A stretch of DNA of 64,000 nucleotides, from IMG/VR virus record IMGVR_UViG_3300037230_000036, positions 27,269-91,268 of that record; one strand, written 5' to 3'. Source of the DNA: a virus. The translations under genes and the position numbers were made by a program. The notes below the pieces were generated by a model. That model did not search any database. It saw only the letters and a list, made by a program, of their open reading frames with translations, and was not told the origin of the DNA. Of the stretch, positions 3,067-53,081 are shown one piece after another (within the stretch, counting starts at the first letter, position 1; every line of letters starts with the position of its first letter).

Positions 3067-3378
3067 ATGCGACTCATATTGACCGCGAGCGCGGTATTGT
3101 TCCTCGGCGCGGCCGGCGTATCAGCCGCCGCCGATTCCAACACCCCGAAGCAATACACGCTTACCGTGACCTCGGATGAGGTGAACGAGATCGGCGCCGC
3201 TCTCGGCAACGAACCCTTCAACAAGGTCTCCGCGCTGATGGAGAAGCTGAAGGCCCAGGTCACCGAGCAGACGCTGAAGGCCTCGGCGGCGGCATTGCCG
3301 AAATCTGACCCCGACAAGGCCGCGGGGGCGCCGGCCGCAGTTCCCGCGAAGCCCGACGAGACCGCACCCGTGAAATAG
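3067..3378 (+). CDS. Small signal-peptide protein, chaperone-like gene following the fibre
   Basis: MRLILTASAVLFLGAAGVSAAA leader; motif EVNEIGAALGNEPFNKVSALMEKL. Confidence 0.55.
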   Translation: MRLILTASAVLFLGAAGVSAAADSNTPKQYTLTVTSDEVNEIGAALGNEPFNKVSALMEKLKAQVTEQTLKASAAALPKSDPDKAAGAPAAVPAKPDETAPVK

Positions 3379-3404
3379 TCCTGGGCCCTGTTGGAAGTCC
3401 ATAA

Positions 3405-3932
3405 ATGAGCACCTGCGCCTCTCTCCCGGACTCTGCCGCGAATGCCGTTCTCGACTTTGTGTCGGTCGAGGAGAGCGACGGCAATTACGACGCCTATATC
3501 GGGCACGCCGGGGCACCGGCCGGGACGATCACGGGCAAAACGATCGCCGAGGTCTATGCATTCCAGCGGCAACTCGTCGACGATGGGGAGCCATCCTCGG
3601 CGGCTGGCCGATATCAGTTCATCCAGGTCACGTTGGAAGAATGCGTCCAGACCGCTGGCCTGCCATTGACCACCCTATTCACGCCGGCCGTACAGGATCA
3701 GCTTGCCCTTCAGCTGTTGAACACCCGCGGCTTTGCTCGCTGGAGGGTCGGGGAGTTGTCGGACGCGGCGTTCGCCCACAACCTGTCATGCGAGTGGGCA
3801 TCGCTTCCAGACCCGCAGAATGCAGGGAAGTCGCATTATGACGGTGTGGGACCGAATCATGCCGGGCGCACGCTCAGCGAGGTCTATGCAGCCCTGGCCG
3901 CGGCACGAGCCTCGACGGTGTCCCCGACGTAA
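3405..3932 (+). CDS. Endolysin, lambda-R-like muramidase/lytic transglycosylase
   Basis: ESDGNY, SSAAGRYQFIQVT, QDQLALQLL and EWASLP motifs. Confidence 0.85.
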   Translation: MSTCASLPDSAANAVLDFVSVEESDGNYDAYIGHAGAPAGTITGKTIAEVYAFQRQLVDDGEPSSAAGRYQFIQVTLEECVQTAGLPLTTLFTPAVQDQLALQLLNTRGFARWRVGELSDAAFAHNLSCEWASLPDPQNAGKSHYDGVGPNHAGRTLSEVYAALAAARASTVSPT

Positions 3933-3954
3933 AAGACCCCGCCGGAGCGGGGTC
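3931..3954. terminator. Hairpin after endolysin
   Basis: GACCCCGC-CGGA-GCGGGGTC preceded by AAAA. Confidence 0.45.
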
Positions 3955-4086
3955 AAGGTCGGGAGGAAACGCCTAAGAGACGTACAGCACGAGCGCATGC
4001 GCCCTCATACCGTGAGCGGCAATGTAGACTTTGGGATCAATTTCCGGTAGCCCTTATTGCAGAGTTCTTACCTCGCGGAGCCGGTC

Positions 4087-4975: not shown

Positions 4976-5538
4976 TGCACAATTTACTGAACCCGTATCT
5001 TCCCGCTCGCGCCGCCGCTTGGTCGCTCAAGCTGGCCGGGGCGACGATTCTTGCTGTTGGGCTCGTGCTGGCTACGAGCGGATGCACGCTCCCCGTTGCC
5101 CCAACACCCCCGTCATCGGAGCAGGCCACATTTACGAAGGTGCTGAACCAACTCGGCAGCACGCAAATCCCGTCCCTACAAGATCAGGCCAACGCGGCGA
5201 TGGCTGAGACGCCGCCGAACACACACATCGCGCAATGCGCAGGCACGCTGCCCGACCCGGCCAATCCGCAAACCGGGACTGGCGCCATGTCGGTTGCGGG
5301 GGCCATTCAGAAGCTCGCCGCCGCTGCCGGGCCAAATCCGAGCGCGCTGGTGCAGACGACCGTTGCGCTCGCTTTTGCGCCCCACAGCGCGCAGTTTGAT
5401 TGGGCGGCCGGGCAGATCGAGCAGGGTTGTGTCCAGGCTCTTCAGGACGCTATCAATGCCGGAAAGGCGACGGCGGCTGATCTCCAGACCATGAACATCG
5501 CGACCGTTCTTGCGCTTGCGCAGGCGGGCACTCTCTGA
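4972..5538 (+). CDS. Lipoprotein
   Basis: Hydrophobic leader ending VLATSG|C. Confidence 0.6.
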   Translation: MMHNLLNPYLPARAAAWSLKLAGATILAVGLVLATSGCTLPVAPTPPSSEQATFTKVLNQLGSTQIPSLQDQANAAMAETPPNTHIAQCAGTLPDPANPQTGTGAMSVAGAIQKLAAAAGPNPSALVQTTVALAFAPHSAQFDWAAGQIEQGCVQALQDAINAGKATAADLQTMNIATVLALAQAGTL

Positions 5539-5687
5539 TGACGAGGCGCCCCAAACTGCATGCGGCGGTCCTCATTCTGGGACTGCTGGCGCTCGCCGGC
5601 TGCAACCAACTTGCGGCGGTGCAAGCCCAGGTCGATCAGCGGGCGCTTGTGCTTCCGCCGGAGCCTGGAAAGGACGTAGCGCCATGA
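5538..5687 (+). CDS. Small lipoprotein (49 aa, not in ORF track)
   Basis: MTRRPKLHAAVLILGLLALAG|CNQ lipobox; TGATG and ATGA coupling to neighbours. Confidence 0.65.
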   Translation: MTRRPKLHAAVLILGLLALAGCNQLAAVQAQVDQRALVLPPEPGKDVAP

Positions 5688-5830
5688 AAACCATCGTGAT
5701 CCTCGCTCTCCTGGCACTGGCAGCATGTGCGTCCGCTAGCGGAGGAGCCCCGCTGCCGCAAGGTTCGACCATCGAGCCGGGGTTCTCGCTCTTCTGCGAC
5801 ACGCACCCGCATCAGGGAACATGCCAATGA
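5684..5830 (+). CDS. Small lipoprotein (outer-spanin candidate)
   Basis: MKTIVILALLALAA|CAS lipobox. Confidence 0.65.
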   Translation: MKTIVILALLALAACASASGGAPLPQGSTIEPGFSLFCDTHPHQGTCQ

Positions 5831-5879
5831 CCCCCGTCCAGGCCGTCAACCTCGCCGCCACGAGCTACGGAGAATTTTG

Positions 5880-6209
5880 ATGGGAAGCATGTACCGGGAT
5901 CAATCTCAGGCAGAGATTGAGAAAGAGCGGAGGCGGTACGAGAAAGAACTGGAGAAGGAGCGCATCGAGGACATCGATGGAGAAATCAACTGGGCCTACT
6001 CGCAGATGCGGATCATCGAGGCCTGGTTGGAAGGCGCGATCGAGCGGAACGAGGCGCTGCTATCCGACAAGGACCAGAAGCGGATCGACAAGGCGATTGT
6101 CGTAACCCGGACCGGACTGAAGATGCTGAAGAAGGTCGTCAAGAGCCGCGCGCCGCATTTGGATACGGCGGCGTGGAAGGCTGAAGCCAAACAAACGACT
6201 CAGCAATGA
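5880..6209 (+). CDS. Hypothetical charged helical protein
   Basis: ORF with ATGA overlap into the next gene. Confidence 0.5.
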   Translation: MGSMYRDQSQAEIEKERRRYEKELEKERIEDIDGEINWAYSQMRIIEAWLEGAIERNEALLSDKDQKRIDKAIVVTRTGLKMLKKVVKSRAPHLDTAAWKAEAKQTTQQ

Positions 6210-6592
6210 TCCCCGATCAGATCGCCCAACTCAGCACCGTCAACACGCAGATCAACGCCGAGCCGTTTGTTCTCGACTCGCCGATGGAGCTGCCCGACAC
6301 CTGGAAATGCAAGCCTGACGGCAAGGGCTGGCTCTGCCGGGACTACGTGCAGTGCAAGGCCGAGACGTTGCGTGAGGCCGGATGGGACAACGCGGCTATC
6401 CCGCTGCTGACGATCCTCTGCTACGACGAACTCGGCGATTACCATGCCGTTCTTGGTGTCGCCGATGGGCCGGACGTGATGATCCTCGACAACCGCGCGC
6501 CCGATATCTACCGCCGCTCGACCCCGCCCTTCGCCTATCGATGGGATCGGATACAGATCGTCGGTAGCGACGAGTTCGAGCCGCTGACGTGA
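6206..6592 (+). CDS. Transglutaminase-like cysteine protease (BTLCP / peptidase C93, LapG-like)
   Basis: C-R-D-Y..K...L...G, HAVL.V and ILDN motifs give a Cys-His-Asp triad. Confidence 0.75.
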   Translation: MIPDQIAQLSTVNTQINAEPFVLDSPMELPDTWKCKPDGKGWLCRDYVQCKAETLREAGWDNAAIPLLTILCYDELGDYHAVLGVADGPDVMILDNRAPDIYRRSTPPFAYRWDRIQIVGSDEFEPLT

Positions 6593-6894
6593 ACACGAGT
6601 GTCAGACTTAACGATGCCGTTTTACTTCTCGCGCACGATCTTGTGCGACCGGAAGATGGCGGGGATCACTTGCCAGTGAAGTTGGCGTCAGCTCGATCGT
6701 CTGCCGATACCATCGCGGTCGCTACCGAAATCCAAGCTGTCGTCGATGGTCTGAGGCAATCCGAGCGCGAGGCGATCGTCAACTTCATCGAGCGCTGCGC
6801 CGATAAGAGCGGCCAGCCGGCAAAGAACGTCCTCGAAAACATGGCAAGCACGATCCAGGCGCTGACCGATGGGGAAATGGAGGAGTTTCGGTGA
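6589..6894 (+). CDS. Hypothetical protein
   Basis: Overlaps both neighbours by 4 nt. Confidence 0.5.
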   Translation: MNTSVRLNDAVLLLAHDLVRPEDGGDHLPVKLASARSSADTIAVATEIQAVVDGLRQSEREAIVNFIERCADKSGQPAKNVLENMASTIQALTDGEMEEFR

Positions 6895-15580: not shown

Positions 15581-16472
15581 TCACGCCACCGCCGGCAACG
15601 CAAGCCCGCAGAACCCGCTGTCCCTGGTCCCCATGATCCAGCGCCACGCCATGCAATCGGAGGCGAGACAGCGACATGATGCGAGCGCTTTTGGGCCAGC
15701 AGTTTCAGGGTCAAAGCGATTGGCCGCGCCCGAAGCGGTTTTCCATTGAACCGCATCGCCCCGAATTTCCGGATGGTAGCGTGCGAAAGGACACCACTTC
15801 TGCCGCGCTTGATCCTCGGTCATCAGTCTCGCTCCCATTCCTTCGCGTTGGCGCACTCGGCTAGAAACTCCGCATCATCCCGCCGCATCCCGTAGCCCTC
15901 GTGACCGCAATCCGTGTTCCAGCCGGGCTGATCGGGCTCTTGCGACAGCGTCCAGATGCGGGCGTGGGGATCAGCTTTTGCCTCTACATCAGCGTCGGGA
16001 TCAGCGACCACGAACCACGCCATCGAAGCCCCCCCCTATCGTCGTCCTGGCTTCATTCCGGCGCACTCTCCACGCGCACGTAGCCGCCGATGAGCCCGGC
16101 CCCGGCCAGATGCGGCGCGGCCTTCCCGGCTTCGACGAGCCGCTTCAGCGCGGCCTCGATCTGCCCCGGCTTGACGTTGCCGATCTTCTCGACCAGCGCA
16201 TCCAGCGACTGCGGCTCGGTGGTCAGGCGGTCCAGCGTCGCGGCTTCGAGGTTCCGGCGCTGGCGACTCGGCGCGTCGTGGCCGTTGGGCGCGGGCGAGC
16301 CGGCGTCCTCGCGCATGGCCTCGACGGCGCGATCGTGCGCAGCAATCGCGGTTCGCGCGACGTCAATGCTGGACTCGGCATCGGCCAAAATCAGCTTTGC
16401 CCGCTGGTAAGCCTCTACCGCGTGCTGTTGCCTGCCCAGCAGTTCGGCGCGGATATCGTCGATCTTGCTCAT
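15581..16472 (-). CDS. Three small coupled hypothetical genes (15581-15823, 15823-16023, 16053-16472)
   Basis: Same-strand ORFs. The first has KWCPFAR..CLASDCMAWRW; the last has a wHTH-like C-terminus. Confidence 0.5.
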
Positions 16473-17728
16473 GCTGTTTCTCTCTCCGGTATAAGTGCGA
16501 AAAATCTGCGGAGGCGCGGAGCCTGGCGACGCCACACCATGTCTTCGATCTCTCGGCCGTAGTGGTTGCCATAGGCGCGCTCATAGGCCTTTCGCATCTG
16601 ATCTTGGCGCGTCATGTCGTACCCAGGCTGGCGTCGCGCGAAGAAAGGACGCCCTGCGGCGACCGTCGCCGGTGCCCTTCCGGTTAGCGCCGGATGCGCC
16701 GTTCCAGCGGTGGTCATGTTGAATAGGTTTCCCGTGTTGAGAAGTTCGCCAGCATTCCCCGCCTCGACGTGGAGCGCGATGGCGACCAACTGGTCGAGCG
16801 GCGGCGTCTCGTCAAAATAGAGGCAGAGATCGGCGAGCTTCTCGCCGCGGATCGCGGTCAGCCCGACGCGGATCCCACTATGCCCCAGCGCCGTCACGTT
16901 TTCCGACCGCACCTGGAAAATAAGATCGTTCGTCGTCGGGATCGCGACAGTCTCGCCGCGAACAAATGCCTGCACCGGCGCGGGACCGAGGATCTGCGCC
17001 GCCGTTGTCGCCGATCGCGCAAGGCGCTTCCGGTTGTCGCGGATCATGCGGCGCAGCGGCTGCCCGATTCGTTTCGCTTCCTGCTCGATGAGGAATTGGT
17101 TCAGCGCCTCCGTGCGGCGCCGGCCGCGCTCTTCATCCGCAGAGGTGAAGAGCGCGTCGAGCAGTTTCACTTCGTCCGGGTGCGCCGGCCACGGCAGCGA
17201 GCAGATACCCTTCGCGAGGCGCGCATGGTGGCCAACCGCGCGGCCGGGATCGGTGCGGACGTAGCGGCGGATTGCGGCTGGCGACCGGAGCCGACGCAGC
17301 ACGCGGGGCCTCGGGCTGCCATCGGCGCGGAGGCGGATGTCGCTGCCACGGCGCCAGTGTTCCAGCGCCCCGCCGATCGTCGAATCGTCGTAGTTCCAGG
17401 CGGCCAGGACCTCGGCGAGTTCGTGGATACGATAGCGTTCGCGGATAAGGGCTGCCGCCACAAAGGCACGCTGATGAGGCGCATCGAGTTCCGTAACGAT
17501 CGCCCGGGCATAGTCGCAGAGGCCGAAACACATTGCTTGGCGTCTACCGAGGTGCGTGTCGCTGTAGTCGCCATTGCGTTTAGGGCGCTCGACCAGATTG
17601 TCGATGACCCCTCGGTCGCCCAGCAGGTTGAGTGCGGCGTGGGACAGGCCGTCGAGCTCGCCGTACTCCACCGCCCCATCAAGGACGTATTGGATGTCGG
17701 GGGGAAGCGGCGACGGCCTGATCTGCAT
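16469..17728 (-). CDS. Cys-motif partner of diGly protein (module 1)
   Basis: C-terminal LCLYFDETPPLDQLVAIALH...GN aligns with 47640-48560; TGATG-coupled to 17728-18114. Confidence 0.65.
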   Translation of the reverse strand: MQIRPSPLPPDIQYVLDGAVEYGELDGLSHAALNLLGDRGVIDNLVERPKRNGDYSDTHLGRRQAMCFGLCDYARAIVTELDAPHQRAFVAAALIRERYRIHELAEVLAAWNYDDSTIGGALEHWRRGSDIRLRADGSPRPRVLRRLRSPAAIRRYVRTDPGRAVGHHARLAKGICSLPWPAHPDEVKLLDALFTSADEERGRRRTEALNQFLIEQEAKRIGQPLRRMIRDNRKRLARSATTAAQILGPAPVQAFVRGETVAIPTTNDLIFQVRSENVTALGHSGIRVGLTAIRGEKLADLCLYFDETPPLDQLVAIALHVEAGNAGELLNTGNLFNMTTAGTAHPALTGRAPATVAAGRPFFARRQPGYDMTRQDQMRKAYERAYGNHYGREIEDMVWRRQAPRLRRFFALIPERETA

Positions 17729-18114
17729 CAGCCGCCCCTGGCAGGACGTACCGCGACGGTTGCGGGCGATGCGACGATCTCTTGGGCATTGTGCGCGATG
17801 CGGCCTTGGCGCTTGCGTGGCGCCTCCGCAGTCTCGTTGTCGGTCTTGACGACTGTCACGTCGCCAATCCCGACAAGTGCGGCGAAATCTTTATCCGCCA
17901 TCGCGAGGGCCCGCCGCTCGCGCACTTCAGCAACGTCCTGCAGCGGCACGCGCCGCGGCGGGGCAAGACCGCCCGCGACCGGTTCGAGGAGGAAGAAGAC
18001 GACGCCCTCGGCCAGCTTCTTTTCGATCACCGGCAAAACCGCAGCATCGCTCGACTCGTCCCAGATCAGAGTGGTATCGCCGGTGCGGTCAAGCATCGTG
18101 AGTGAGCGTTGCAT
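17728..18114 (-). CDS. Putative ubiquitin-like protein ending in Gly-Gly (module 1)
   Basis: N-terminal LDRTGDTTLIW, C-terminal VAVRPARGG*; similar to 47412-47636. Confidence 0.65.
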   Translation of the reverse strand: MQRSLTMLDRTGDTTLIWDESSDAAVLPVIEKKLAEGVVFFLLEPVAGGLAPPRRVPLQDVAEVRERRALAMADKDFAALVGIGDVTVVKTDNETAEAPRKRQGRIAHNAQEIVASPATVAVRPARGG

Positions 18115-36150: not shown

Positions 36151-37146
36151 ATGAGCGAGGAAGTCTGCGATATCGGCTACATCAACCCCGAGAGGAAGCA
36201 CGCGCTGATCAGCATCAAGGCACCGTCGCTGAATAGCTGCCACTGCTCATGGCAGCGCAATATGGCGCAATTTGCGATCACCATCGAGAGCGCGATCGTT
36301 CTCCGCGCGAAGCTGAATGCGTTTCTCGCCCAGCACGGAGTCACATTTCAATGAGCGACGCACCGCAGGAATGGCACCCGTGGGCCGATTATGGGGGAAG
36401 CCCGGATGAGCCTCCCGTAGCGGAAGCCGGGATCGATCTCGCCGGCCCTCCCTGTGCGGGCTGCCGTTCCTGGGCTGAGTCGACTCCTCCATCGCGCTCT
36501 GAGGAGGAGATGCCGTTTTGACCAAAGCCCGGCGCCCCACCGCAGCAGATCGTGACCTCGCCGATCACATTCGCCGGCTCCCGTTCGGCTCGTACAGGAT
36601 CGATTCGATCGATGAGGCGGCGTCCGATGGGACCGCACCGATGCGGTACTGTGGTCTGGCTCGTATGAAGCGCGAAGGGCAGCTCACGCTCGAAATTGGC
36701 GTGAAACGCATCGATATCTATCCGTCCGAGCCGTCCGCATGACCGTCATGACTCGCGAAGAAGCCGTCGCCGAACTGCTCGACAAAGCTCGTCGTCTGCA
36801 GCCTGAGACGGGGCTGCTGCCCTCCGAGCTGCCGGTGTCATCTCTGATCGCCCATGCCTTCATCGACGCCGTGAACGCCGAGTGGGACGCGCTCTACTCG
36901 ACAACCGCCGAAGTGCGCGAGATCGCCGATAGGGCGCGAGAACTTGCGCGCGCCGCGTCTGCGGCAATGGACCTCGACAAGCCGGACTTCGACTCGTCCC
37001 GCTACCTTGTGTTCGGGCTTGAGCATGCCTACCGCGCACCTGCCGGCGATGACAAGACCGTTCCGCTGCTCCAATGGATGCTCGGCTGCGCAAAGCCGCT
37101 GTGGGCGATGTTCATCCAGGACGCTGCCGCGCCGGCTGAGCCGTGA
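36151..37146 (+). CDS. Small hypothetical genes between the capsid paralog and terL (36151-36354, 36351-36521, 36518-36742, 36739-37146)
   Basis: Chain of 4-nt overlaps. Confidence 0.5.
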
Positions 37147-38930
37147 TCGACCTCGACACCCTCTCCACCGACGAACTCCGCTGGATCGCCCGCGCCGACC
37201 GCGCCATCAAGCGGAAGGCGGAAAAGCAGGCCTGCGAGGATAGCCTCCTCGAGTTCCTCCGCTGCGCCTGGCCGCACATGGGCGAGGCCGGCGAGTTCAT
37301 CCCGAACTGGCACCACGAGAAGATCGCGACCAACCTTGAGACGATGGCGTGGGATGGCGAGGTCGAGTCGCTGCAGGACGGCGACCCCGATGACCGCTTC
37401 ACGCGCTCGATCGTCTGCAACGTGCCACCGCGGACCACGAAGAGCTTGCTGATCTCGGTAGCCCTGCACGCCTGGGTATGGGCACAGCCGGAAAGCCGCT
37501 GGAGCCCGCTCTGCGGCCCACACGTCCGGTTCTTCTGCCTCAGCTATGGGGCGACGCTCGCCGAGGACTTGGCGGTCAAGGTGCGCCGGCTCATCATGGG
37601 CGCCTGGTATCAGCAGCACTGGGGCGCCCAGGTCGAGATCAGACCGGATCAGGCGGCGCGATCGAACTTCGCCAACACCAAAGGTGGGGAGCGGATCTCC
37701 TGCTCGATCGAGGGCGGCTTGCTGGGCCGCGGCGGCGACTGGCAGATTGTCGACGATCCCCACCATTTGAAGGGTGCCGAGAGCGATACCCAGCGCCGGG
37801 AAACGCTCGAAGGCATGCGCAGCCTCGTCACCCGCGTCACCGATCCCCGCATCGCCGCGCGCGTCCTCGTCATGCAGCGGGTCCACAAGGACGACTCGAC
37901 CAACTACGCGATCGAGAATTGGGGCCCGGTGAGGCATCTCATGTTCCCGATGAAGTTCGATGAGCGCCGCGCCGATCCGGAGGACGAGCGGGATACCGAC
38001 GGCGAGTTGCTGTGGCCGGAAGTCTGGACCGAGAAGGTCGTCGAGCAGGAAGAGCGCGAGCTGCGGCCATATGGCGTCGCCGGGCAACTCCAGCAGGCGC
38101 CGGTGCCGAAAGGCGGCGGCATCATCAGCCGGAACTGGTGGCGGCTGTGGCCCGGCGACTACCCGGAAGCCGCGACCTATGACCCGATCTGCTTCTGTCC
38201 GCTGTGCAAATGGCATTCGAAGGTGCCCCGGGGACAGGTCGTCGAGGAATGCCCGAGTTGCGGCTCCAGGGTCGAGCGCCACGTCCCGTTCCCGGATCTC
38301 TCCTACCGGCTGCTGTCGGTCGACACCGCGTACGGCGAGAAGGACGACAACTCGTACAGCGCCGCGACGGTATGGGGTATCTGGCACGACAAGACCGAGG
38401 CGCCGCGCGCGATCCTGATGCGGGCCTGGCGTGGCCGGCCGCGGCTGCGCGGGGTTCCGGACTCCCCGGTCGCGGCGGAACGCATCGGTCTCGTCGAGCG
38501 GATCCACATGATGGCGGTCGGCGACCAGGTCGATGCGGTGCTGATCGAGAACAAGAGCCGCGGCCAGGACCTCTACCAGGAGCTCGAGCAGCTGATGCGG
38601 GAGTGGCCGTTCCAGCTGATCTACACGACGCCGGTGGTCTCGAAGGAGGTCCGGCTGGAAAGCTGCGTCCCGCTCTTCGTCAATGAACGGGTCTGGGCGC
38701 CGGACAAAGCCTGGGCGGAACTCGTCATCAACGAGGTCGAGGAGCAGAACTACAGCCACAAGGCGCAGCACAATGATCTAAGCGACACCGTCGCGCAAAG
38801 CTTGAGATTTTTCAGAGACTCCGGGATGCTGAGCCTGGGCGACGAGTTCGCGCTGGAAACCCGGCGGTCGATGGCGTTCAAGGGGAAGAGCGGGCGGTTC
38901 GACGCCGGCGCCGCTTACGAGGGGGAGTGA
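37143..38930 (+). CDS. terL: Terminase large subunit with internal zinc-ribbon insertion
   Basis: NWHH, NVPPRTTKS (Walker A), IVDDPH (Walker B), VMQRVH, QQAP, SVDTA and HNDLSD. Confidence 0.93.
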   Translation: MIDLDTLSTDELRWIARADRAIKRKAEKQACEDSLLEFLRCAWPHMGEAGEFIPNWHHEKIATNLETMAWDGEVESLQDGDPDDRFTRSIVCNVPPRTTKSLLISVALHAWVWAQPESRWSPLCGPHVRFFCLSYGATLAEDLAVKVRRLIMGAWYQQHWGAQVEIRPDQAARSNFANTKGGERISCSIEGGLLGRGGDWQIVDDPHHLKGAESDTQRRETLEGMRSLVTRVTDPRIAARVLVMQRVHKDDSTNYAIENWGPVRHLMFPMKFDERRADPEDERDTDGELLWPEVWTEKVVEQEERELRPYGVAGQLQQAPVPKGGGIISRNWWRLWPGDYPEAATYDPICFCPLCKWHSKVPRGQVVEECPSCGSRVERHVPFPDLSYRLLSVDTAYGEKDDNSYSAATVWGIWHDKTEAPRAILMRAWRGRPRLRGVPDSPVAAERIGLVERIHMMAVGDQVDAVLIENKSRGQDLYQELEQLMREWPFQLIYTTPVVSKEVRLESCVPLFVNERVWAPDKAWAELVINEVEEQNYSHKAQHNDLSDTVAQSLRFFRDSGMLSLGDEFALETRRSMAFKGKSGRFDAGAAYEGE

Positions 38931-41760: not shown

Positions 41761-44013
41761 ATGGCCGACGGCGACCACACAGTCATTCTCCCGGGGCAGC
41801 GCCCCCCGACGATCGCCCGCAACGAAGGCGGGATGGCGGAACGATTGGGCGCGCCGCTCCGGCAGCGATTGCCGAATATCCCGATCCTCAGCGGCGACGG
41901 AACCGGTCCGGATGTCATCGTTGACGTCCGGGGCGAGGACGGCTCCGGGGTCGTGGTTGGCGATGACGGCACCGTCCAGGCAGAACTGCCACACGTTTTC
42001 GTCCGCGGCACCGGCACCCAGAACGACAATCCGGCCGACTTCGGCGAGAACCTGGCGCAGACGCTCGACGAGGGCGTCCTTTCGAACATCGCCGCGGAGG
42101 TGATCGAGGGCGTCGAGGCGGACCAGCAGTCCCGCACCGCCTGGGTCGAGCAGTATACGAAGGGCATCGACCTCCTCGCCCTCAAGATCGAGGATCCCGG
42201 TCAGCAGGGCGGCGGCTCCCGTGGGGTGTCCCGCGCCGGGCATACGCTCCTCATCGAGGCCATGGTGAAACAACAAGCTGCTGCTGGGGCCGAAATGCTG
42301 CCGGCGATGGGTCCCGTCAAGGTGCCGACGATCGGCGACTCCTCGGAGGACGAGGAGCAACGCGCCGCCGACCTCGCTGCCGACATGAACTATTACCTGA
42401 CCGATGTCGCGACCGAGTATTACCCCGACACCGAGTCGATGCTGATGCATCAGGCCTATTGCGGCATCGGCTACAAGAAGATCTACCGTGACCCGATCCG
42501 GCGGCGCCCGGTCAGCGAATCCGTGCTGGCCCCAGACATGATCGTGTCGGAGGAGGCCACCGATCTCGACTCCGCGCTCCGGGTCACGCATTCGATCCAG
42601 ATGCTGAAGGGGCAACTCCGCCGGATGCAGCTGGTCGGCCACTACCGCGAGATCGACCTCGGAATGCCGATGGGCGGGTTCGGGCTCGGCCGGCAGGCGC
42701 AGCAGGCCATCAACCGGAGCCAGGGCATCTCGAACACGGCGCAGCGGCCGCAGGATCAGCCCTACGAAATCTGGGAGACCGACACCGAACTCGACGTCGA
42801 CTACCTCGGGATCGATGGCCGCTTCGAACGGCAGACACCATGGGGGTTACCGCTTCCCTACAAGATCACGCTGGATCACCAATCCCGGCAGGTGCTCGGC
42901 GTCTGGCGAAACTGGCGCCCCGAGGACGCCCTCTATCAGCGTCGGAATATGTTCGTGAAGTTCGGGATGGTGCCCGGACTCGGCTTCCACTCCTGGGGCT
43001 TCCTGCAACTCCTCGGCAACCAGACCCGGACCCTGCGCGCAATCCTGCGGCTGATGATCGATTCCGGGATGTTCTCGAACTTTCCCGGCGGGGTGAAATT
43101 CAAGAACGCGAGGACCGCCACCAACGAGATCGCGCCGCGGCCCGGCGAGTTCGTCGACATCGACGCCGTCATGGGGCCAAACGCTGACATCTCGAAGCTC
43201 TGGATGCCGCTGCCGTACAAGACGCTGGACCCCGTCTTCGTGCAGTTGGCGGAGCAGATCAAGAACGATGCCAAGAGCCTCGGCGCCACGGTCGATCTCG
43301 AGGTCGGCGAGGGTCGCACCAACATGCCGGTCGGCACCGTGCTCGCGATGATCGAGCAGCAGGTGCAGGTCATGGCGGCGGTCCTGAAGCGGAACCACCG
43401 CGCGCAGAAGCAGGAACTCCACAAGCTCCGCGAGCTCTTCGCCGAGAACCCGAGCGACCTCTCGACGATGTGCCGGGGTCGTCCGCAGGCGTCGAACGGC
43501 GAACCCCGGATGTGGCAACTCGCCGAGGAGTTCATGGACCTCGATTTGTCGCCGGCCTCGGACCCCAACGTGCCGTCGCGGGTGCATCAGATCATGGCCG
43601 CCAACATCGCGCTCCTCATCGGACAGCAGGCCGGCCCGCTGGTCGACATGACCGAGATTCTCAAAGACGCCTTCCGTGCGATCGGCCGCGACCCCGCCCG
43701 GTACGTCGTGCAGCCGGCACAGGGGGCTCCGGCGCCGCCGCCACCACCGCCGGATCCCAAGATCGTGGCCGCAACCATCACTGCGCAGCAGAAGCAGCAG
43801 CAGGAGATCATGGAGACCCAGGCGCAGCAGCAAAAACTAGAGGTCGACCGCGAGAAGATGGCGGCGCAGGCCAGCGAGGCCGCTGCGGGGAACGAGACCG
43901 CGCTCGAAATCGCCCGGACAAAGGCTGCTGCCGACACCGCGCAGCCCTATCACGAAGCAGCTGCCGCACCGCAGCCGGCCAACAATCCGTTGGGATCCCT
44001 GGGAGAGCTTTGA
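41761..44013 (+). CDS. Portal protein (P22-like)
   Basis: 750 aa; AADMNYYLT, GIGYKKIY, LIDSGMFSNFPGG, NMPVGT, PASDPN and Gln-rich barrel tail. Confidence 0.9.
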   Translation: MADGDHTVILPGQRPPTIARNEGGMAERLGAPLRQRLPNIPILSGDGTGPDVIVDVRGEDGSGVVVGDDGTVQAELPHVFVRGTGTQNDNPADFGENLAQTLDEGVLSNIAAEVIEGVEADQQSRTAWVEQYTKGIDLLALKIEDPGQQGGGSRGVSRAGHTLLIEAMVKQQAAAGAEMLPAMGPVKVPTIGDSSEDEEQRAADLAADMNYYLTDVATEYYPDTESMLMHQAYCGIGYKKIYRDPIRRRPVSESVLAPDMIVSEEATDLDSALRVTHSIQMLKGQLRRMQLVGHYREIDLGMPMGGFGLGRQAQQAINRSQGISNTAQRPQDQPYEIWETDTELDVDYLGIDGRFERQTPWGLPLPYKITLDHQSRQVLGVWRNWRPEDALYQRRNMFVKFGMVPGLGFHSWGFLQLLGNQTRTLRAILRLMIDSGMFSNFPGGVKFKNARTATNEIAPRPGEFVDIDAVMGPNADISKLWMPLPYKTLDPVFVQLAEQIKNDAKSLGATVDLEVGEGRTNMPVGTVLAMIEQQVQVMAAVLKRNHRAQKQELHKLRELFAENPSDLSTMCRGRPQASNGEPRMWQLAEEFMDLDLSPASDPNVPSRVHQIMAANIALLIGQQAGPLVDMTEILKDAFRAIGRDPARYVVQPAQGAPAPPPPPPDPKIVAATITAQQKQQQEIMETQAQQQKLEVDREKMAAQASEAAAGNETALEIARTKAAADTAQPYHEAAAAPQPANNPLGSLGEL

Positions 44014-46360: not shown

Positions 46361-47346
46361 CGATGGAGATCGATATGGACGGCGAAAACGAAGGTCAGAC
46401 GAGTTATCAGCAGCCCGCGCCTGAGCTACCGCCGACGGACCTTCGTCCGGTCGACCCTCCGCTACCCGAAGGCACAAATGGTGGCGATCCGGTGTACCAG
46501 CCGCAGAACGCCAGCAACCCGGAGTACGGCTCTCCCCTGCAGCCCGTGGAAGGGGAGACCGAAATGCGGTACACCGGCCTCGCCGAGCTGAAGGCTGAAG
46601 GCGGCGACCGGGCGACCGATCCAGACGCCGATCCGTCCTACGGCCAACCCGCGCCGGACGCCGATCCGCGCGTGGACGCTGCCGCGGCGGATATCTCGAA
46701 GCGCATGACCGTGCTGATCAACAATGCTTCGGCTTTTACGGCTCAAGCCGCTCTGACCCGACCGGCGATCGACAAGGCCGTGACGATCGCGGACGAGGCG
46801 ACTACCGCGGCGGTTTCGGACGTCAGCGCCGCGCAAACTGCGGACACCGCCGCGAAGGCGGCTCACGACGCCGACGCTCACGATGCCGATTCCCTTGCGG
46901 AACTGGCGACGGCGGCCGCGACCAAGGCCAGCGCGATGGGCGAGGCGGCGGCGAAGGCATCGGCTTCCGTTGCGGCGGCCACGGCCTATGACTCAGCGAT
47001 GGCGACCGCGCTTCAGACCGCGATCGACGCCCGCACCACCCAGGCGGACGCTGACGCCGCGCTGGCAGCCAACTCTCCGGACGCCGCCCCCAAGCAGATC
47101 GCCGCCGATGCTGCGGCGGCTTCGGCACTTACCGCCGGGGAGGCTGCGGGCAAGGCCTCTGCCGACGCGAATGCCGCGGCCCAAAGCGCCGCCGAAGCAT
47201 TGGAAGCGGCTCGGGCGCCTGCGCAGTCGGCGCTTGGCAGCGAGTACCGCACCGCCTTTGCTGAACTCAAGGCCTGGACGCGCCGCGAGATCGAGCTGGC
47301 GACCGCCGGCCACTCTCGCGAGACCCGAGAAGTCATCAACAAATAG
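46357..47346 (+). CDS. Ala-rich protein containing a 15-aa capsid-derived peptide
   Basis: EMRYTGLAELKAEGG is identical to the major capsid; Ala-rich coiled coil. Confidence 0.65.
   Translation: MTMEIDMDGENEGQTSYQQPAPELPPTDLRPVDPPLPEGTNGGDPVYQPQNASNPEYGSPLQPVEGETEMRYTGLAELKAEGGDRATDPDADPSYGQPAPDADPRVDAAAADISKRMTVLINNASAFTAQAALTRPAIDKAVTIADEATTAAVSDVSAAQTADTAAKAAHDADAHDADSLAELATAAATKASAMGEAAAKASASVAAATAYDSAMATALQTAIDARTTQADADAALAANSPDAAPKQIAADAAAASALTAGEAAGKASADANAAAQSAAEALEAARAPAQSALGSEYRTAFAELKAWTRREIELATAGHSRETREVINK
46559..46606 (+). repeat. 48-bp exact direct repeat of capsid gene 52312-52359
   Basis: CCGAAATGCGGTACACCGGCCTCGCCGAGCTGAAGGCTGAAGGCGGCG at both sites. Confidence 0.95.
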
Positions 47347-47372: not shown

Positions 47373-47408
47373 AAAGCCCCGGTCTGAACAAACCAGATCG
47401 GGGCTTTT
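47373..47408 (+). terminator. Strong hairpin immediately before the diGly gene
   Basis: AAAGCCCCGGTCTG-N7-CAGATCGGGGCTTT(T), ending 3 nt before ATG 47412. Confidence 0.55.
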
Positions 47409-47411
47409 CAC

Positions 47412-47636
47412 ATGGCAGGCAAAATCTACAAACTCGACCACACCGGCCACGGCGTTTTGACCGAGTGGAAGGACAAGCCGAAGGAGATCGCTGCGGCGGC
47501 TCAGATTTTCGGCGAGTTGCAGAAGGCCGGCAACCTGCTGGTCACGATCCCCGACGATGGCAGCGACGGCGAGGTCGTCGAGACCTTTCGGCCCGATGCC
47601 GAGATGCTGATGGTGCCCGCGCTGCAAGGGGGCTGA
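47412..47636 (+). CDS. Putative ubiquitin-like (beta-grasp) protein ending in Gly-Gly (module 2)
   Basis: 74 aa; LDHTG; beta-beta-alpha-beta-beta-beta pattern; C-terminus MLMVPALQGG* resembles MoaD/ThiS/SAMP tails. Confidence 0.7.
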   Translation: MAGKIYKLDHTGHGVLTEWKDKPKEIAAAAQIFGELQKAGNLLVTIPDDGSDGEVVETFRPDAEMLMVPALQGG

Positions 47637-47639
47637 ACC

Positions 47640-48560
47640 GTGGCGCTCCCGAGAACGTGGGAAGGACTGGCGCGGTATCTGCGGGCACCGGATGTGCCGC
47701 CTGTTGTCGGTGTCCTACGCAATGAATCTGATCGTCCTCCAGCCGTTGACATGCGGGCGGCTGTGTACACCGAGCGCGATATCAGGCGGATGTATGAAGG
47801 CTTGCCCGAGGGTGCCGTCATTAACCGCTCGTGGACGACGGTGTACCGTCGCGATCCGGCGCAGCGTAGTACCGACGCTGAAGTGGGACGGATCGAGAGT
47901 GTCGACGAGACGCTCGCCATGCAGCAGACGACGCAAGCGCTCGAACGATGCAACCGGGCATTGATGCAGGCCAGCGCCATGCCCATCGAGTTGCTGTCAG
48001 GTATCCGGAACGGAGTCGGCATCGCTGAGGAGATCGTGCGCGAAGGCGCTCGCCGGCTTGAGATGATGGCAGCGCGGGCTACTATAGACGTCATTCTGGC
48101 CCCTACGAGCGCGGCATCCCGTGACCGCGCCCGGTCGCTCCTGCTCCGCTTTCTCAAGCCGGAGCAGCGCGAGCAGCACGGCAAGACCGGCGCGTTCGAT
48201 CATCTCGGAAAGTACGGCACCTACACGCTTCGGCTCGGTCGCAGCTACAATGTTCGGTTCGAGCCAAAGCCCGGCGCCGCGGCATCCGTGGAAGATGAGA
48301 AGTACCATTCCGCCGCTGTCCTCTGCGCGATCCCCGCTGGTGCTGGCGAGATGCCGGTCGAGGACATTCTGATCGCGCAGCTGCTGTGGCTGCGGCGCGA
48401 CGAGGATGACTTCTGGTGGCGGGCAAATAGGGGGCCCGGCGAGATGATTGAACTCGATGCGCCGGGACGCACGGCATGGCAATGGCGTGAGTGGTGTCGT
48501 GCGGCGCGCGAGCGGGGCGAGTTCTTCATCATCGATGATCCGCAGACGCCAACCGAATGA
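47640..48560 (+). CDS. Cys-motif partner of diGly protein (module 2)
   Basis: ARSLLLRFLKPEQ..LCAIP..MPVEDILIAQLLWL..DE..F...AN. Confidence 0.65.
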   Translation: MALPRTWEGLARYLRAPDVPPVVGVLRNESDRPPAVDMRAAVYTERDIRRMYEGLPEGAVINRSWTTVYRRDPAQRSTDAEVGRIESVDETLAMQQTTQALERCNRALMQASAMPIELLSGIRNGVGIAEEIVREGARRLEMMAARATIDVILAPTSAASRDRARSLLLRFLKPEQREQHGKTGAFDHLGKYGTYTLRLGRSYNVRFEPKPGAAASVEDEKYHSAAVLCAIPAGAGEMPVEDILIAQLLWLRRDEDDFWWRANRGPGEMIELDAPGRTAWQWREWCRAARERGEFFIIDDPQTPTE

Positions 48561-49285: not shown

Positions 49286-49702
49286 ATGGCCGAAATCGCC
49301 AGCCAAGCCCTCCAGCTAAACCTGGGGAACGATCCGGCCTCCGCCATTCGGCTGCAGGTCGCGAACTTCCTTGACGGCATCGAGATCGGCGGCGAAGACC
49401 TGCTGGTCGGCATCTTTATCCCGGATGCGAACGCCAAGACCGCCGGCAACATCATCCTGCCCGAGCAGTACCTCAAGGAATACCGCTGGCAGGGGACCGC
49501 CGGCCTCGTCTTGAAGATCGGGCCGCTCGCCTACAACACCGAGGAAACGAAGGACTGGTACGCCAAGGCACCCGCCGTTGGCGACTGGGTCATGTTCGAC
49601 GTGAAGACGGGGCACCAACTCCTCCTCGGTAAGCAGCCCTGTCGGCTGGTCCCGGCCCGCTACATCCTCGGCAAGCTCGCCAACCCAATGCTGGTGTTCT
49701 GA
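49286..49702 (+). CDS. GroES-like co-chaperonin
   Basis: KTAGNIILP, GLVLKIGPLAY and VGDWVMF motifs. Confidence 0.75.
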   Translation: MAEIASQALQLNLGNDPASAIRLQVANFLDGIEIGGEDLLVGIFIPDANAKTAGNIILPEQYLKEYRWQGTAGLVLKIGPLAYNTEETKDWYAKAPAVGDWVMFDVKTGHQLLLGKQPCRLVPARYILGKLANPMLVF

Positions 49703-50781
49703 TGCCCGACGCCCTTTCCCCGGAAACCCAACGCCTTCACGACGCCCTGGCGGCGGCGCGAAACCAGACCTCGGCCGCCGTCGCGCGGGCGACCGTCGCT
49801 GAAGGGCGCCTCCGGCAGGAGACCGGCGCCCGCTTCACCGTCGAGAAGGGCGCCGTCGAGGCGTCGATCGTCGCCACCGAGGAGCGGCAGACCGCGCTCG
49901 AGCACCAGATCGCCGAACTCAACGCCGACGGCAAGTTCGAAGACGCCGCGAAGATGACGCGGCAGATGAGCGATCTCTCCGCTTCGCTCGTCCAGTTGCG
50001 GGGTCGCAAGGAATGGATCGCGGGCCAGGAGGCCCATGCCGCGGCGCAGCCGGTGGCGACAGACCCCTACGCCCAGTTCTCCGAGTCGCAGCGCCGCTGG
50101 ATTTCCGAGAACCCGCGCTACGGCAGCGACGAGGCCTTCACGAAGAAGGTCAATGCGGCCGCGGGCTACGCCACGGAGGTTGCCGGGGTCGCTCCGGACA
50201 GCAAGGAGTTCTTCGAACACGTCGAGCGCGCCGCCTATCCGGAACGCTTCGCCAATCAGCCGGCCGGTGACGCCGGTGACGGCACGGGCGCGGGCGCCGG
50301 GGGCGACAACATCGCCCCGACCGGCGATGCCGGCACGGGTCCCGACATCGCGATCGACCGCGACCATCACACATTGCCGGCACAACCGGCTTCTCAGACC
50401 ACGACGGAACCGCCCGCGATGCGTATCGAGTTCACGCCGGAGCAGGGTGGTCCCGCCGAGCCGGTGCGGCAGCAGCCGTACCAGCCAGCCGTGGGCCGCG
50501 GTAATCAGGGCGACGCGATGCGCATGGTCGCGGCGCCGCCGAGCCGAAACATCGCCGCCGCCGCGCAGCGCGCTGCCGGCGGCGGCCGCCGCGCGATCGA
50601 GCCGACGCAGGAAGAGGTCGACACCGCGATCCAGCTTGCGCAGTCGATCGAGCCGGAAAGCGACATGGTCCGTACCAACAACACCCGCGAGATGGTGCAG
50701 TGGTACTACGCGCTGGCGCACAGCCCGACGCATCAGCACACCAGACGCCGTTCCTGGGCGCGCGACTCGGTGGTGGGGTGA
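49702..50781 (+). CDS. Probable capsid scaffolding protein
   Basis: Coiled coil, W..ENP.Y motif; lies between GroES-like and capsid genes. Confidence 0.6.
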   Translation: MPDALSPETQRLHDALAAARNQTSAAVARATVAEGRLRQETGARFTVEKGAVEASIVATEERQTALEHQIAELNADGKFEDAAKMTRQMSDLSASLVQLRGRKEWIAGQEAHAAAQPVATDPYAQFSESQRRWISENPRYGSDEAFTKKVNAAAGYATEVAGVAPDSKEFFEHVERAAYPERFANQPAGDAGDGTGAGAGGDNIAPTGDAGTGPDIAIDRDHHTLPAQPASQTTTEPPAMRIEFTPEQGGPAEPVRQQPYQPAVGRGNQGDAMRMVAAPPSRNIAAAAQRAAGGGRRAIEPTQEEVDTAIQLAQSIEPESDMVRTNNTREMVQWYYALAHSPTHQHTRRRSWARDSVVG

Positions 50782-50786
50782 TCGCG

Positions 50787-51317
50787 ATGACCGAAACCGC
50801 CGCCCGCAGCGATGGCCGTGGGGAACTCCGGCAACCGACCCGCATGCGTCCGCGGGAGCCCCACGAACGGTTCTCGATCGATGACAGCCGCCGGGATCCC
50901 AACCTGGATTACCAGTGGGTATCGCTGGCCTGCCGCGGCGAAACCAATCCAATGCTGAACGATTTCTTCGCCGCCGGGTGGGTCCCGGAGCGCGCCTCGA
51001 ATTTCCCGCGGAACAGCGGCATCGACGTTGCTCTGAGTGAACGCCTCATCGAGCTTGGCCACATGAAGCAGGTCCAGCCGGACGATCCCATCATCGACCG
51101 CAACCAGATGCTGGTCTCCCGCCCGAAATCCTTGAGCACGCAGTCGCGCAAGGAGGATGAAAGCATGGCCGTGGGCCAGGTCGACAACCACATGGGACGG
51201 CTCCGCGCCGTCTCCCGCCGCGCGATCGGCGACAAGACCCAAATCAGCCGCCGGATGACCCGCACCAACGCGAGCCCCGACGGCATGATCCCCGATGACG
51301 CCGAGGTGGAGATCTGA
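50787..51317 (+). CDS. Conserved head-region hypothetical protein
   Basis: YQWV..GWVPE..MLVSRP pattern. Confidence 0.55.
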   Translation: MTETAARSDGRGELRQPTRMRPREPHERFSIDDSRRDPNLDYQWVSLACRGETNPMLNDFFAAGWVPERASNFPRNSGIDVALSERLIELGHMKQVQPDDPIIDRNQMLVSRPKSLSTQSRKEDESMAVGQVDNHMGRLRAVSRRAIGDKTQISRRMTRTNASPDGMIPDDAEVEI

Positions 51318-51320
51318 TCG

Positions 51321-51914
51321 ATGTCGAACCCCAATATTCCGTTCGGCTTTCAGGAGTCGGGCCTCATCGACGGCATCTCGCCGAACTTCGGGATGTTCCC
51401 CGACGGCCAGATCAGCACTGCGAACACGAACAGCATCTACGGCTGGGATGTCGCGAAGCCGATCAGCGGCGGCTACTTCGATGTCTTCACGGCCCCGGTC
51501 GCCGGCGGCGCCCCGGTCGGCGGCATCTTCGTCCCGCATTTCGCGTGGCCGAGCAAGTCATACGGTGGCACCTTCCGGAACCGGGCCTACCTGAACCAGG
51601 GCTCCGATGTCGTCGCGGGCGGCGCGATCGGCTGCAAGATCGTCAACAACCCGCAGGCGAAGTTCATCGTCCGCTCGGCCGGCCTTTCCGGCGCCGCCGT
51701 TGGGCAGACCGCCATCGGCCAGAACGCGAATTTCGCGATCGGCCCGGCTCCCGGCAACAACCTCATTTCGGCGTTCTGGCTTGACGACTCGACGATCGGG
51801 ACCGGGCCATCGCTGCCCTTCCGCATCGTCGCCATCGTCCCGAACCCGCCGAGCGATCCGACCTCGATCTACAATCAGGTCGTCGTGATGTTCAACAACC
51901 TCGCGCCGCTGTAA
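51321..51914 (+). CDS. Head decoration/cement-type protein
   Basis: MSNPNIPFGF start, beta-rich, upstream of capsid. Confidence 0.6.
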   Translation: MSNPNIPFGFQESGLIDGISPNFGMFPDGQISTANTNSIYGWDVAKPISGGYFDVFTAPVAGGAPVGGIFVPHFAWPSKSYGGTFRNRAYLNQGSDVVAGGAIGCKIVNNPQAKFIVRSAGLSGAAVGQTAIGQNANFAIGPAPGNNLISAFWLDDSTIGTGPSLPFRIVAIVPNPPSDPTSIYNQVVVMFNNLAPL

Positions 51915-51922
51915 AATCCGCC

Positions 51923-52171
51923 ATGTCCCGCCGCGCCGGAAATCCGACAGACTTCGAGAGCTTCCTGACCTGGGAAGCCCTCGTCGACGTGCTGTCGTAT
52001 GACCCGGCCTACGGCGAGTTCCGGTGGCTTGGAACCTTCGATACGAAGGAAGAGGCCGTTCTCGCCCGTGCGCGCTTCGACAATGAACACATCGGTGAAT
52101 TCGCGCGGTCTGACACTTCGTTCCGCGAAGCGCCTGTAGTCGCAAGACTAGGCCAAGTAAAGGAGAAGTAA
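51923..52171 (+). pseudogene. Internally deleted HNH-AP2 endonuclease remnant
   Basis: N-terminal LSYDP..GEFRW joined directly to C-terminal LGTFDTKEEA..GEFAR; HNH core absent. Confidence 0.65.
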
Positions 52172-52172
52172 A

Positions 52173-53081
52173 TTGGCCATCACGAGAGGGTCAGAGCGCG
52201 ATTTGTTGTTACCAGGTCTAGCGGGGGTCGAGGGCAAGTATCCGCAGATTGTTCGCCAATGGCCAACGGTGTTCAACCGCGGCTTTTCGAAGATGGCCGC
52301 CGAGCGTATCGCCGAAATGCGGTACACCGGCCTCGCCGAGCTGAAGGCTGAAGGCGGCGCGACCACCTTCGACAACGCCCCCGGCGAGCGCTTTATCTGG
52401 AACATCGAGGCCAATGCCTACGGTCTCGGCACGGCGATCACCCGTGAGGCCTTGGACGACAACCTCTACAAGGACCATTTCGGTCCGATGTCGATCGGCC
52501 TCGCGGAATCCTTCGCGCAGACCGAAGAGATCGTCCACGCCAACATCTTGAACCAGTCGACGACGAACAACCCGACGATCATCGGCGACGGTCAGCCGTT
52601 GGCCTCGACCGCGCATCCGATCGACAACGGCACCTACGCGAACCGGCCGTCGCCCGACCTCGACCTCAACGAGGCCGCCGTCGAGTACATGACGCAGCTG
52701 ATCCGCGTCTTCCCCGACCAGGCCGGCAACCGCCTCTTGGCGCGCTCCCGGAAGCTCGGCGTCCCCATCGCGCTGCAGTACACCGCGGAGCGCCTCACCA
52801 AGGCCGAGCTCCGCCCCGGCACCAACACGAACGACATCACCGCGTTCCTCTCGGCGGGCGCCCTCCCCGAGGGCTACCAGGTCATGGACTACCTGACCTC
52901 GCCCTACCTCTGGTTCGTGCTGTCGACGATCAAGGGGCTGGTCAGCTACGAACGGGTGCCGTTCGAGCTCGATATGCAAGTCGATCCGATAACCGGAAAT
53001 CTTTTACTAGTAGGTTACCAGAGGTATGGAGTTGGGTGGAAGAACCCCCGCGGTATCGCCATTTCGGCTCCGACAGCCTAG
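52173..53081 (+). CDS. Major capsid protein (HK97 fold)
   Basis: AAGGAG RBS and TTG start; LLLPGL, KAEGG..FD, ITREALDDNLY, GDGQPL.STAHP and NPRGI motifs. Confidence 0.9.
   Translation: MAITRGSERDLLLPGLAGVEGKYPQIVRQWPTVFNRGFSKMAAERIAEMRYTGLAELKAEGGATTFDNAPGERFIWNIEANAYGLGTAITREALDDNLYKDHFGPMSIGLAESFAQTEEIVHANILNQSTTNNPTIIGDGQPLASTAHPIDNGTYANRPSPDLDLNEAAVEYMTQLIRVFPDQAGNRLLARSRKLGVPIALQYTAERLTKAELRPGTNTNDITAFLSAGALPEGYQVMDYLTSPYLWFVLSTIKGLVSYERVPFELDMQVDPITGNLLLVGYQRYGVGWKNPRGIAISAPTA

Follow-up and report, generated by a model that had tools for sequence, protein, structure and literature searches.

Do two adjacent phage genes, one for a small protein that ends in Gly-Gly and one for a protein with a conserved cysteine, constitute a ubiquitin-like system of their own? 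The question is raised by positions 47412-48560 of a stretch of 64,000 nucleotides (the window), which corresponds to bases 27269-91268 of a complete 91,268-bp IMG/VR phage genome (IMGVR_UViG_3300037230_000036) with terminal repeats and 64% GC. An earlier note on this DNA had pointed to a 74-amino-acid protein ending in MLMVPALQGG, followed 3 nucleotides later by the gene of a partner carrying the motif LC...P-x2-D-x-L-x-A-x2-L...AN, and had read the two as a minimal ubiquitin-like module; coordinates and sequences are as it gave them. The analysis described below confirms that observation and extends it well beyond this phage, showing that the two genes are a self-contained, horizontally mobile cassette of uncultured phages and some plasmids. 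The interpretation given to the pair is partly supported, and the chemistry that we propose for it is hypothetical.

The small protein and its Gly-Gly end

The small gene (47412..47636, plus strand) looks coding as judged by its GC fractions at the three codon positions (0.65/0.39/0.84). A word-indexed search returned a single close homologue of its product (P0003, 78% identity). A profile built from eight small proteins, including those of six phage loci reached via the partner domain described below, matched 187 proteins at E <= 0.01, none of which has a name or a Pfam domain; the family counts given here refer to 120 listed matches of these 187. The family is characterised by the signature LDxTGDTxxxW ... 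A...F ... G ... FDPxAExI..P.L.GG, and the exact GG terminus is found in 116 of the 120 listed homologues. The others end in AG (2), SG (1) and GGRS (1), and only one of the 120 has an extension, of two residues, past the GG.

In this phage the Gly-Gly codons overlap a putative Shine-Dalgarno site for the partner gene (AAGGGGG, 47626..47632, plus strand), read from the sequence 7 nucleotides before the partner's GTG at 47640. We therefore considered whether GG is kept merely as a ribosome-binding site. This explanation is ruled out by two observations: the tail glycines are encoded by GGT, GGC, GGA and GGG across the loci, and GG is retained even where the partner gene lies 195-625 nucleotides away. 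The constraint thus acts on the protein and not on the ribosome-binding site, which demonstrates that the free C-terminal Gly-Gly of the small protein is under protein-level selection.

Folding the small protein from its single sequence gave a poor model (predicted local distance difference test, pLDDT, 58). With an alignment of 120 sequences, AlphaFold2 produced a model with a pLDDT of 89.9 and a predicted template-modelling score (pTM) of 0.76, in which strands at residues 3-9 and 12-19, a helix at 23-38 and strands at 42-45 and 65-68 are followed by a flexible tail (beta-beta-alpha-beta-beta). This model was compared with known structures by Foldseek against the PDB, by VIA-align over the whole set of PDB representatives and by a VIA second-look alignment, and the top 50 rows of each search were inspected. 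Nearly all of these rows are ubiquitin-like or beta-grasp domains, among them Raf RBD, PKD ULD, USP7 Ubl, PB1, UBX, DIX, SUMO, Ufm1, ISG15, TtuB, MoaD and Mth1743, and the best matches reached Z 5.1 (root-mean-square deviation, rmsd, 3.7 over 67 aligned residues) and Z 5.2 (rmsd 3.2, 63 aligned). The predicted model therefore supports the beta-grasp, ubiquitin-like fold that the earlier note had expected, as a fold class only and not as kinship with one modifier family. The best structural match in BFVD, an uncharacterised protein of Agrobacterium phage Atu_ph07, was followed up as a possible relative and set aside, as neither family profile matched that phage's genome.

At the sequence level, the 74-aa protein matched no ThiS, MoaD (PF02597), ubiquitin or Prok_Ub model at E up to 1, and nothing but noise was obtained from Pfam, NCBIfam and PHROGs. 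Sequence and profile searches of the PDB with both members of the pair gave only repeat and coiled-coil artefacts.

The partner protein and the linkage of the two genes

The partner gene (47640..48560, plus strand) encodes 306 amino acids from a GTG start 3 nucleotides past the TGA of the small gene, and its stop codon runs into the start (ATG, 48557) of the following gene. The position of the putative AAGGGGG site supports this start over the alternative gene call of 269 amino acids (P0001). When searched against Pfam, NCBIfam and PHROGs, the 306-aa protein itself returned only noise. A HMMER search of 1.84 billion representatives gave 76 matches at E < 1e-3, all on residues ~150-270, and the homologues together with their invariant columns delimit a conserved domain of about 110 amino acids at residues ~155-270 (48102..48449, plus strand). 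One match, P0005 (2393 aa, 12 matching stretches), was discarded as spurious, being a Calx-beta-like repeat protein that the hidden Markov model (HMM) of the domain failed to recognise.

Within this domain L172, C229 and P239 are invariant in all 80 partner sequences compared, and C229 is the sole invariant polar residue. Its codon lies at 48324-48326, in the motif L228-C229, P239-x2-D242-x-L-x-A-x2-L...A262-N263. Q176, D242 and Q247 each occur in 77-79 of the 80 sequences (Asp242 in 78) and Asn263 in 69, and A164, L168 and A262 are nearly invariant. The two features on which the earlier note had focused, the GG end of one protein and the cysteine of the other, are thus both retained across their families.

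Homologues exist for the C-terminal domain only. The N-terminal ~150 amino acids are lineage-specific, those of this phage's partner forming a unique sequence, and N-termini from different lineages are unrelated to each other. In many homologues (for example L004 3659-3950, L005 3701-3960, L008 3707-3960, P0009 and P0013) the N-terminus is a low-complexity region rich in Trp, Thr, Tyr and Asn, followed by a charged helix. These variable heads might recognise targets or act as the conjugation substrate.

The two genes were also found to be tightly linked. Phage loci reached via the partner had the small gene upstream in six of six cases, and among 12 loci reached via the small protein the partner domain lay downstream in all 11 that could be tested, the remaining one ending at a contig edge. 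The pair is also present in five further records, namely a contig of a Planctomycetaceae metagenome-assembled genome (L021), a soil metagenome contig (L024), Virus Rctr197k (L026) and two Bradyrhizobium plasmids (L022 and L025). Most loci have the partner start within a few bases of the small-gene stop, and in five loci one small unrelated open reading frame (ORF) lies between the two. Synthesis of a fusion protein by readthrough of the small-gene stop codon was considered and ruled out, as the genes share a frame in about one third of the loci, which is the proportion expected by chance. These results clearly show an obligate association: the partner neighbours the small protein in every locus that could be tested, and the two are usually coupled in translation, in line with the gene-pair co-occurrence that the earlier note had proposed to check.

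An all-against-all comparison of the loci (+/-6 kb) showed that the pair are the only two conserved genes, with no third. Their neighbours are DNA polymerase A and clamp loader genes in L011, genes for a UvsX-like recombinase, SSB and SbcCD in L018, an IS110 transposase gene in L005 and an oxidoreductase gene in L014; on the plasmids they are recombinases, insertion sequence (IS) elements and unrelated small genes. Since the neighbours vary in this way between loci, the two genes are a mobile cassette and not a part of head assembly. The earlier note had framed the pair as belonging to the head operon and had suggested a role towards virion proteins, and this framing is weakened by the contexts in the other phages and plasmids, which do not point to a role confined to virion proteins; the pair's place in the head operon of this phage looks incidental.

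Several carriers show further peculiarities at or near the pair. On plasmid L022 (CP126019.1, from Bradyrhizobium japonicum USDA 123) the pair occupies 219304-219966, and within 7 kb of it there are three consecutive tyrosine recombinase genes (recombinase-in-trio; 1-2752 of locus L022) together with copies of IS1380 and IS3. Phage L009 holds two complete pairs (3248-3965 and 5932-6733) about 2 kb apart, indicating that duplication of the module occurs. In Virus Rctr197k (KX853510.1, 2815-4067) the small protein has 142 amino acids, matches the family profile twice and ends in PG, not GG; it looks like a tandem beta-grasp protein. In the same record a second partner-like ORF (5129-5986) follows the partner gene, and a CRISPR array lies ~1.3 kb upstream.

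Among 50,697 phage records, tblastn with the window's proteins found nothing significant, a typical partner gave no match and a typical small protein matched Virus Rctr197k only; with the queries used, no copies of the pair were found in cultured phages. A full-text literature search retrieved papers on Bil, Bub, CBASS and TAPI, none describing this gene pair. The module is accordingly widespread, unnamed and undescribed in the searchable literature.

The phage locus and a candidate second pair

The phage genome recurs across several peat metagenomes, and contigs from two further peat samples hold fragments identical to it, so that they provide no variation. In the window, the pair sits between the portal gene (41761-44013, plus strand), itself preceded by the large terminase gene (37143-38930, plus strand), and the major capsid gene (52173-53081, plus strand). 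Between the pair and the capsid gene are a GroES-like gene (49286-49702, plus strand) and a scaffold-sized gene; together with the capsid gene these span 49286-53081. The product of the GroES-like gene, located directly before the scaffold-sized and capsid genes, matches Cpn10 (Pfam PF00166, E 6.7e-5; PHROG 3188) and may assist capsid folding as a phage co-chaperonin. A single ORF of 3787 amino acids (genome 17407-28770, plus strand) extends into the start of the window, up to 1502, and may encode a giant virion or ejection protein or a virion RNA polymerase. At 46559-46606 the assembly contigs of the likely source run break and overlap exactly at a stretch of 48 bp, which fits a repeat.

Immediately upstream of the small gene, a GC-rich hairpin of 14 bp followed by UUUU is predicted at 47373..47407 (plus strand; -24.7 kcal/mol, z = -6.8 against 200 shuffles). 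It lies downstream of the stop (47346) of an Ala-rich 329-aa gene and ends 4 nucleotides before the small gene's ATG. A scan for consensus terminators missed it, its T run being just 4 long. Except within the 3' arm of this hairpin, no clear Shine-Dalgarno site precedes the small gene; the terminator-like structure could therefore stop upstream transcription, or it may occlude the ribosome-binding site and thereby gate translation of the cassette.

The earlier note had also reported a distantly similar pair at 16469-18114 of the window, in the same order. Here a 128-aa protein (17728..18114, minus strand) starts with MLDRTGDTTLIWD, the most conserved motif of the small-protein family, ends in RPARGG and has ~50 extra internal residues. 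It matched the family profile with an hmmsearch E of 1.8e-4 and an hhalign probability of 83%, the latter over 22 N-terminal residues only. The start of the adjoining gene (16469..17728, minus strand), which encodes 419 amino acids, overlaps the stop of the 128-aa gene, and its product carries the collinear motif NV...LC...P-x2-D-x-L-x-A-x2-L...GN. This protein aligned with the partner domain on the Cys, Pro and Asp columns, with an hhalign probability of 8% (E = 0.004), and had no relatives in the viral or metagenome contigs scanned. BLASTP between the two pairs found nothing, and the second pair gave only noise in Pfam, NCBIfam and PHROGs. The similarity between the pairs is thus weak. As their genes stand in the same order and they share a GG terminus and collinear motifs, a very diverged duplicate of the first pair, with a candidate small-protein paralogue and a candidate partner, is plausible, and L009 shows that duplicates occur.

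Possible functions of the pair

To place the pair among known conjugation systems, the enzymes that accompany ubiquitin-like proteins elsewhere are informative. Five carrier phages, including this complete 91-kb genome, were searched for them, three of the carrier genomes being at least 90% complete. ThiF-family E1 (PF00899) was matched in none of the five and in 14 of 14 control genomes. Prok-JAB (PF14464) was likewise matched in none of the five and in the control genomes, and Prok-E2_B had no match in the carriers. UQ_con was unmatched in the carriers, and the control genomes were unmatched as well. No ThiF-type E1 was seen among the genes adjoining the pair on the two Bradyrhizobium plasmids. 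The earlier note had seen no E1/ThiF or JAB gene in the window, and this holds for the whole phage genome and for the four other carriers.

The reading that we favour, tentatively, is that the partner takes the Gly-Gly carboxylate as a thioester and that the small protein is then passed to a target or the pair competes with host defence. In such a scheme the partner would bind the Gly-Gly tail of the small protein and its cysteine would accept the tail carboxylate as a thioester, which would be an E2-like step. With no residue past the Gly-Gly and no E1 gene, the pair would rely for activation on an adenylating enzyme of the host (MoeB/ThiF type) or on an as yet unrecognised partner activity. 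In a last step the small protein would be passed to a host or phage target protein, or the pair would compete with the ubiquitin-like defence machinery of the host. The more specific proposal of an E1-independent, two-protein conjugation system, in which the ~110-aa Cys domain alone, or by hijacking host MoeB/ThiF, loads the Gly-Gly carboxylate and transfers the small protein to host or phage targets, we regard as unlikely.

Several results weigh against a thioester-forming pair. With Z of at most 5.2, the structural matches of the small protein are middling and place it in the fold class without bringing it near any particular modifier family, and when the 120 small-protein members were run through hmmscan against Pfam with a cutoff of E 0.1, ThiS, MoaD (PF02597), ubiquitin and Prok_Ub all stayed unmatched. 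The partner family has no match in Pfam (47 members searched), PHROGs, PADLOC or PDB sequences. No HPN precedes its cysteine, the His-Pro coming after the Cys and not before it, and a His at C+2 is present in only 44 of the 80 sequences, this phage having Ile there (C-A-I-P versus C-x-H-P). A crude Chou-Fasman profile on the alignment predicts helix-helix, four strands, a loop and a long helix for the partner domain, and places Cys229 at the end of strand 4. This predicted layout is compatible with a small E2/RWD-like sandwich and proves nothing. To our knowledge, nobody has observed a covalent adduct of the pair. The hhalign probability of the partner domain against Prok-E2_A was 0.1%, a value of little weight, as the profile comprised just 3 sequences from 401 Planctomycetota genomes. 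The earlier note's suggestion of a novel E2/ligase-like or protease-like enzyme thus stands as far as the partner is an obligate neighbour with an invariant cysteine, but neither sequence nor profile searches connect it to an E2 or protease family.

Prokaryotic E2-like proteins can be without HPN and have a His after the Cys (PMC1779556), and an E2-like reading of the partner therefore stays open. In E2-CBASS, the single E1-free route documented so far, an E2 can act without an E1 (10.1101/2022.05.25.493364), the thioester being formed by cleavage of the residue after the Gly (10.1101/2022.05.25.493364). A further point against the thioester scheme is that this route cannot apply here, because the chain of the small protein already ends at GG (116 of the 120) and leaves no peptide bond to spend.

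The pair resembles several described systems without coinciding with any of them. Bil (BilA Ubl, BilB E2, BilC JAB, BilD E1), Bub and classes 6a-6e of Iyer, Burroughs and Aravind (2006) likewise have a small beta-grasp protein with a C-terminal Gly beside a small protein with one conserved Cys, and are likewise found on mobile elements (PMC1779556; PMC10557695; PMC11601596); the E2-like members of these operons, as does the partner, lack HPN, and in some of them a His follows the Cys (PMC1779556). In contrast to the phage pair, for which neither was matched in the five carrier genomes, these operons always have a ThiF-like E1 and usually a JAB. The pair proteins match none of the Bil/Bub Pfam or PADLOC models, and they are encoded on phages and plasmids rather than in defence islands. 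E2-CBASS (type II short CBASS, a CD-NTase with a lone E2) is, like the pair, a two-protein and E1-free arrangement; in it, as is proposed for the pair, a Cys partner engages the Gly-containing C-terminal tail of its neighbour (10.1101/2022.05.25.493364; PMC12948482). Its substrate is the cyclase, however, whereas the phage pair has a free beta-grasp protein, and no sequence similarity was detected. Phage lambda and T1 encode TAPI, a ubiquitin-like beta-grasp domain with a conserved C-terminal Gly, beside the gene of the TAPK JAB/NlpC peptidase (PMC1779556), which resembles the pair in combining a phage Ubl with an adjacent gene, there one for a cysteine- or metallo-peptidase. TAPI, though, continues into an additional domain at its C-terminal side and is encoded in the tail-tip operon with J and K as neighbours, while the pair described here is free-standing, with a small protein ending in GG, contains no JAB or NlpC domain and has no fixed position. 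ThiS, MoaD, TtuB, Urm1 and SAMP share with the small protein a length of ~70-90 amino acids, the beta-grasp fold and a hydrophobic last strand followed by x-x-G-G at the C-terminus. The small protein differs from these carriers in its own signature (LDxTGDTxxxW, FDPxAExI, PxLxGG) and in having no E1, sulfurtransferase or synthase as neighbour.

Four other explanations compete with a conjugating role. The small protein could be a non-covalent decoy or inhibitor that mimics a host Ubl substrate (BilA, the C-terminus of the CBASS cyclase or MoaD/ThiS), the pair blocking a host E1 or E2 (Cap2, BilD, MoeB) and so protecting the phage or plasmid, with a Cys that is structural or traps the host enzyme. 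This is rather unlikely, yet has more in its favour than the remaining three: the cassette comes without an E1 or JAB and moves among unrelated neighbourhoods in phages and plasmids, as an accessory or anti-defence gene would, and host systems that conjugate via a C-terminal Gly are reported to act against phages (PMC10097602, PMC10557695). For a decoy alone, on the other hand, an obligate partner with an invariant Cys would be superfluous, and neither protein resembles any defence-system protein in PADLOC. It is quite improbable that the pair is instead a sulfur carrier and its relay, in which host MoeB/ThiF and a sulfur donor would adenylate and thiocarboxylate the GG end and the partner Cys would help to relay the sulfur to a phage-specific product such as a modified nucleoside, DNA or a cofactor. 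In favour of this, the small protein shares the hallmark of ThiS, MoaD, TtuB and Urm1, a beta-grasp fold with a free GG tail; TtuB and MoaD are among the structural neighbours (Z 3.5-4.4), and in two phages the pair lies within a DNA replication/recombination module. Nevertheless, PF02597 is unmatched in the 120 members, the loci do not share a sulfurtransferase, PP-loop or radical-SAM gene next to the pair, and the partner is by sequence unlike any known sulfur acceptor.

Slightly less probable again is a partner that acts as a cysteine peptidase or deconjugase, removing host tags or recycling a phage tag, with the small protein as substrate mimic or regulator. The invariant Cys with the near-invariant Asp242, Gln247 and Asn263 would suit such an enzyme, and an E2-like protein acting as a cysteine protease has a precedent in E2-CBASS (10.1101/2022.05.25.493364). 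What argues against it is the lack of an invariant His, the residue at C+2 varying as described above, so that the Cys-His(-Asp/Asn) set of papain-like enzymes or deubiquitinases is not all conserved; moreover, no Pfam peptidase family was matched, and a small protein that already ends at GG needs no processing. A pair serving the head morphogenesis of this phage, as a chaperone- or scaffold-like accessory factor for capsid assembly, is very improbable. Its position between the portal gene and the GroES-like, scaffold-sized and capsid genes and the overlap of the partner stop with the next gene start would agree with such a role, but this location is not conserved: elsewhere the pair is found beside DNA polymerase and clamp loader, UvsX/SSB/SbcCD or transposase genes, or on plasmids that lack virion genes. 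No such pair follows the portal gene in the phage's closest portal relative, and in the phage itself the strong hairpin stands between the pair and the gene before it.

Bacterial ubiquitin-like conjugation is known as an anti-phage weapon of the host, as in Bil and type II CBASS, where it operates with an E1. The module described here is the mirror image, a Ubl with a strict Gly-Gly end and a dedicated Cys partner that is carried by phages and plasmids without an activating enzyme. Copies of the pair on Bradyrhizobium plasmids are found in cultured strains, so that its function is directly testable. If the pair conjugates, it would show how mobile elements tag or rewire host proteins and would define a minimal chemistry of Ubl transfer; were E1-independent conjugation true, this would be the smallest ubiquitin-type tagging machine known, serving mobile elements and not cellular defence. 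If the pair is a decoy, it would represent a new class of anti-defence. On either reading, two large families of "hypothetical" proteins would gain a function.

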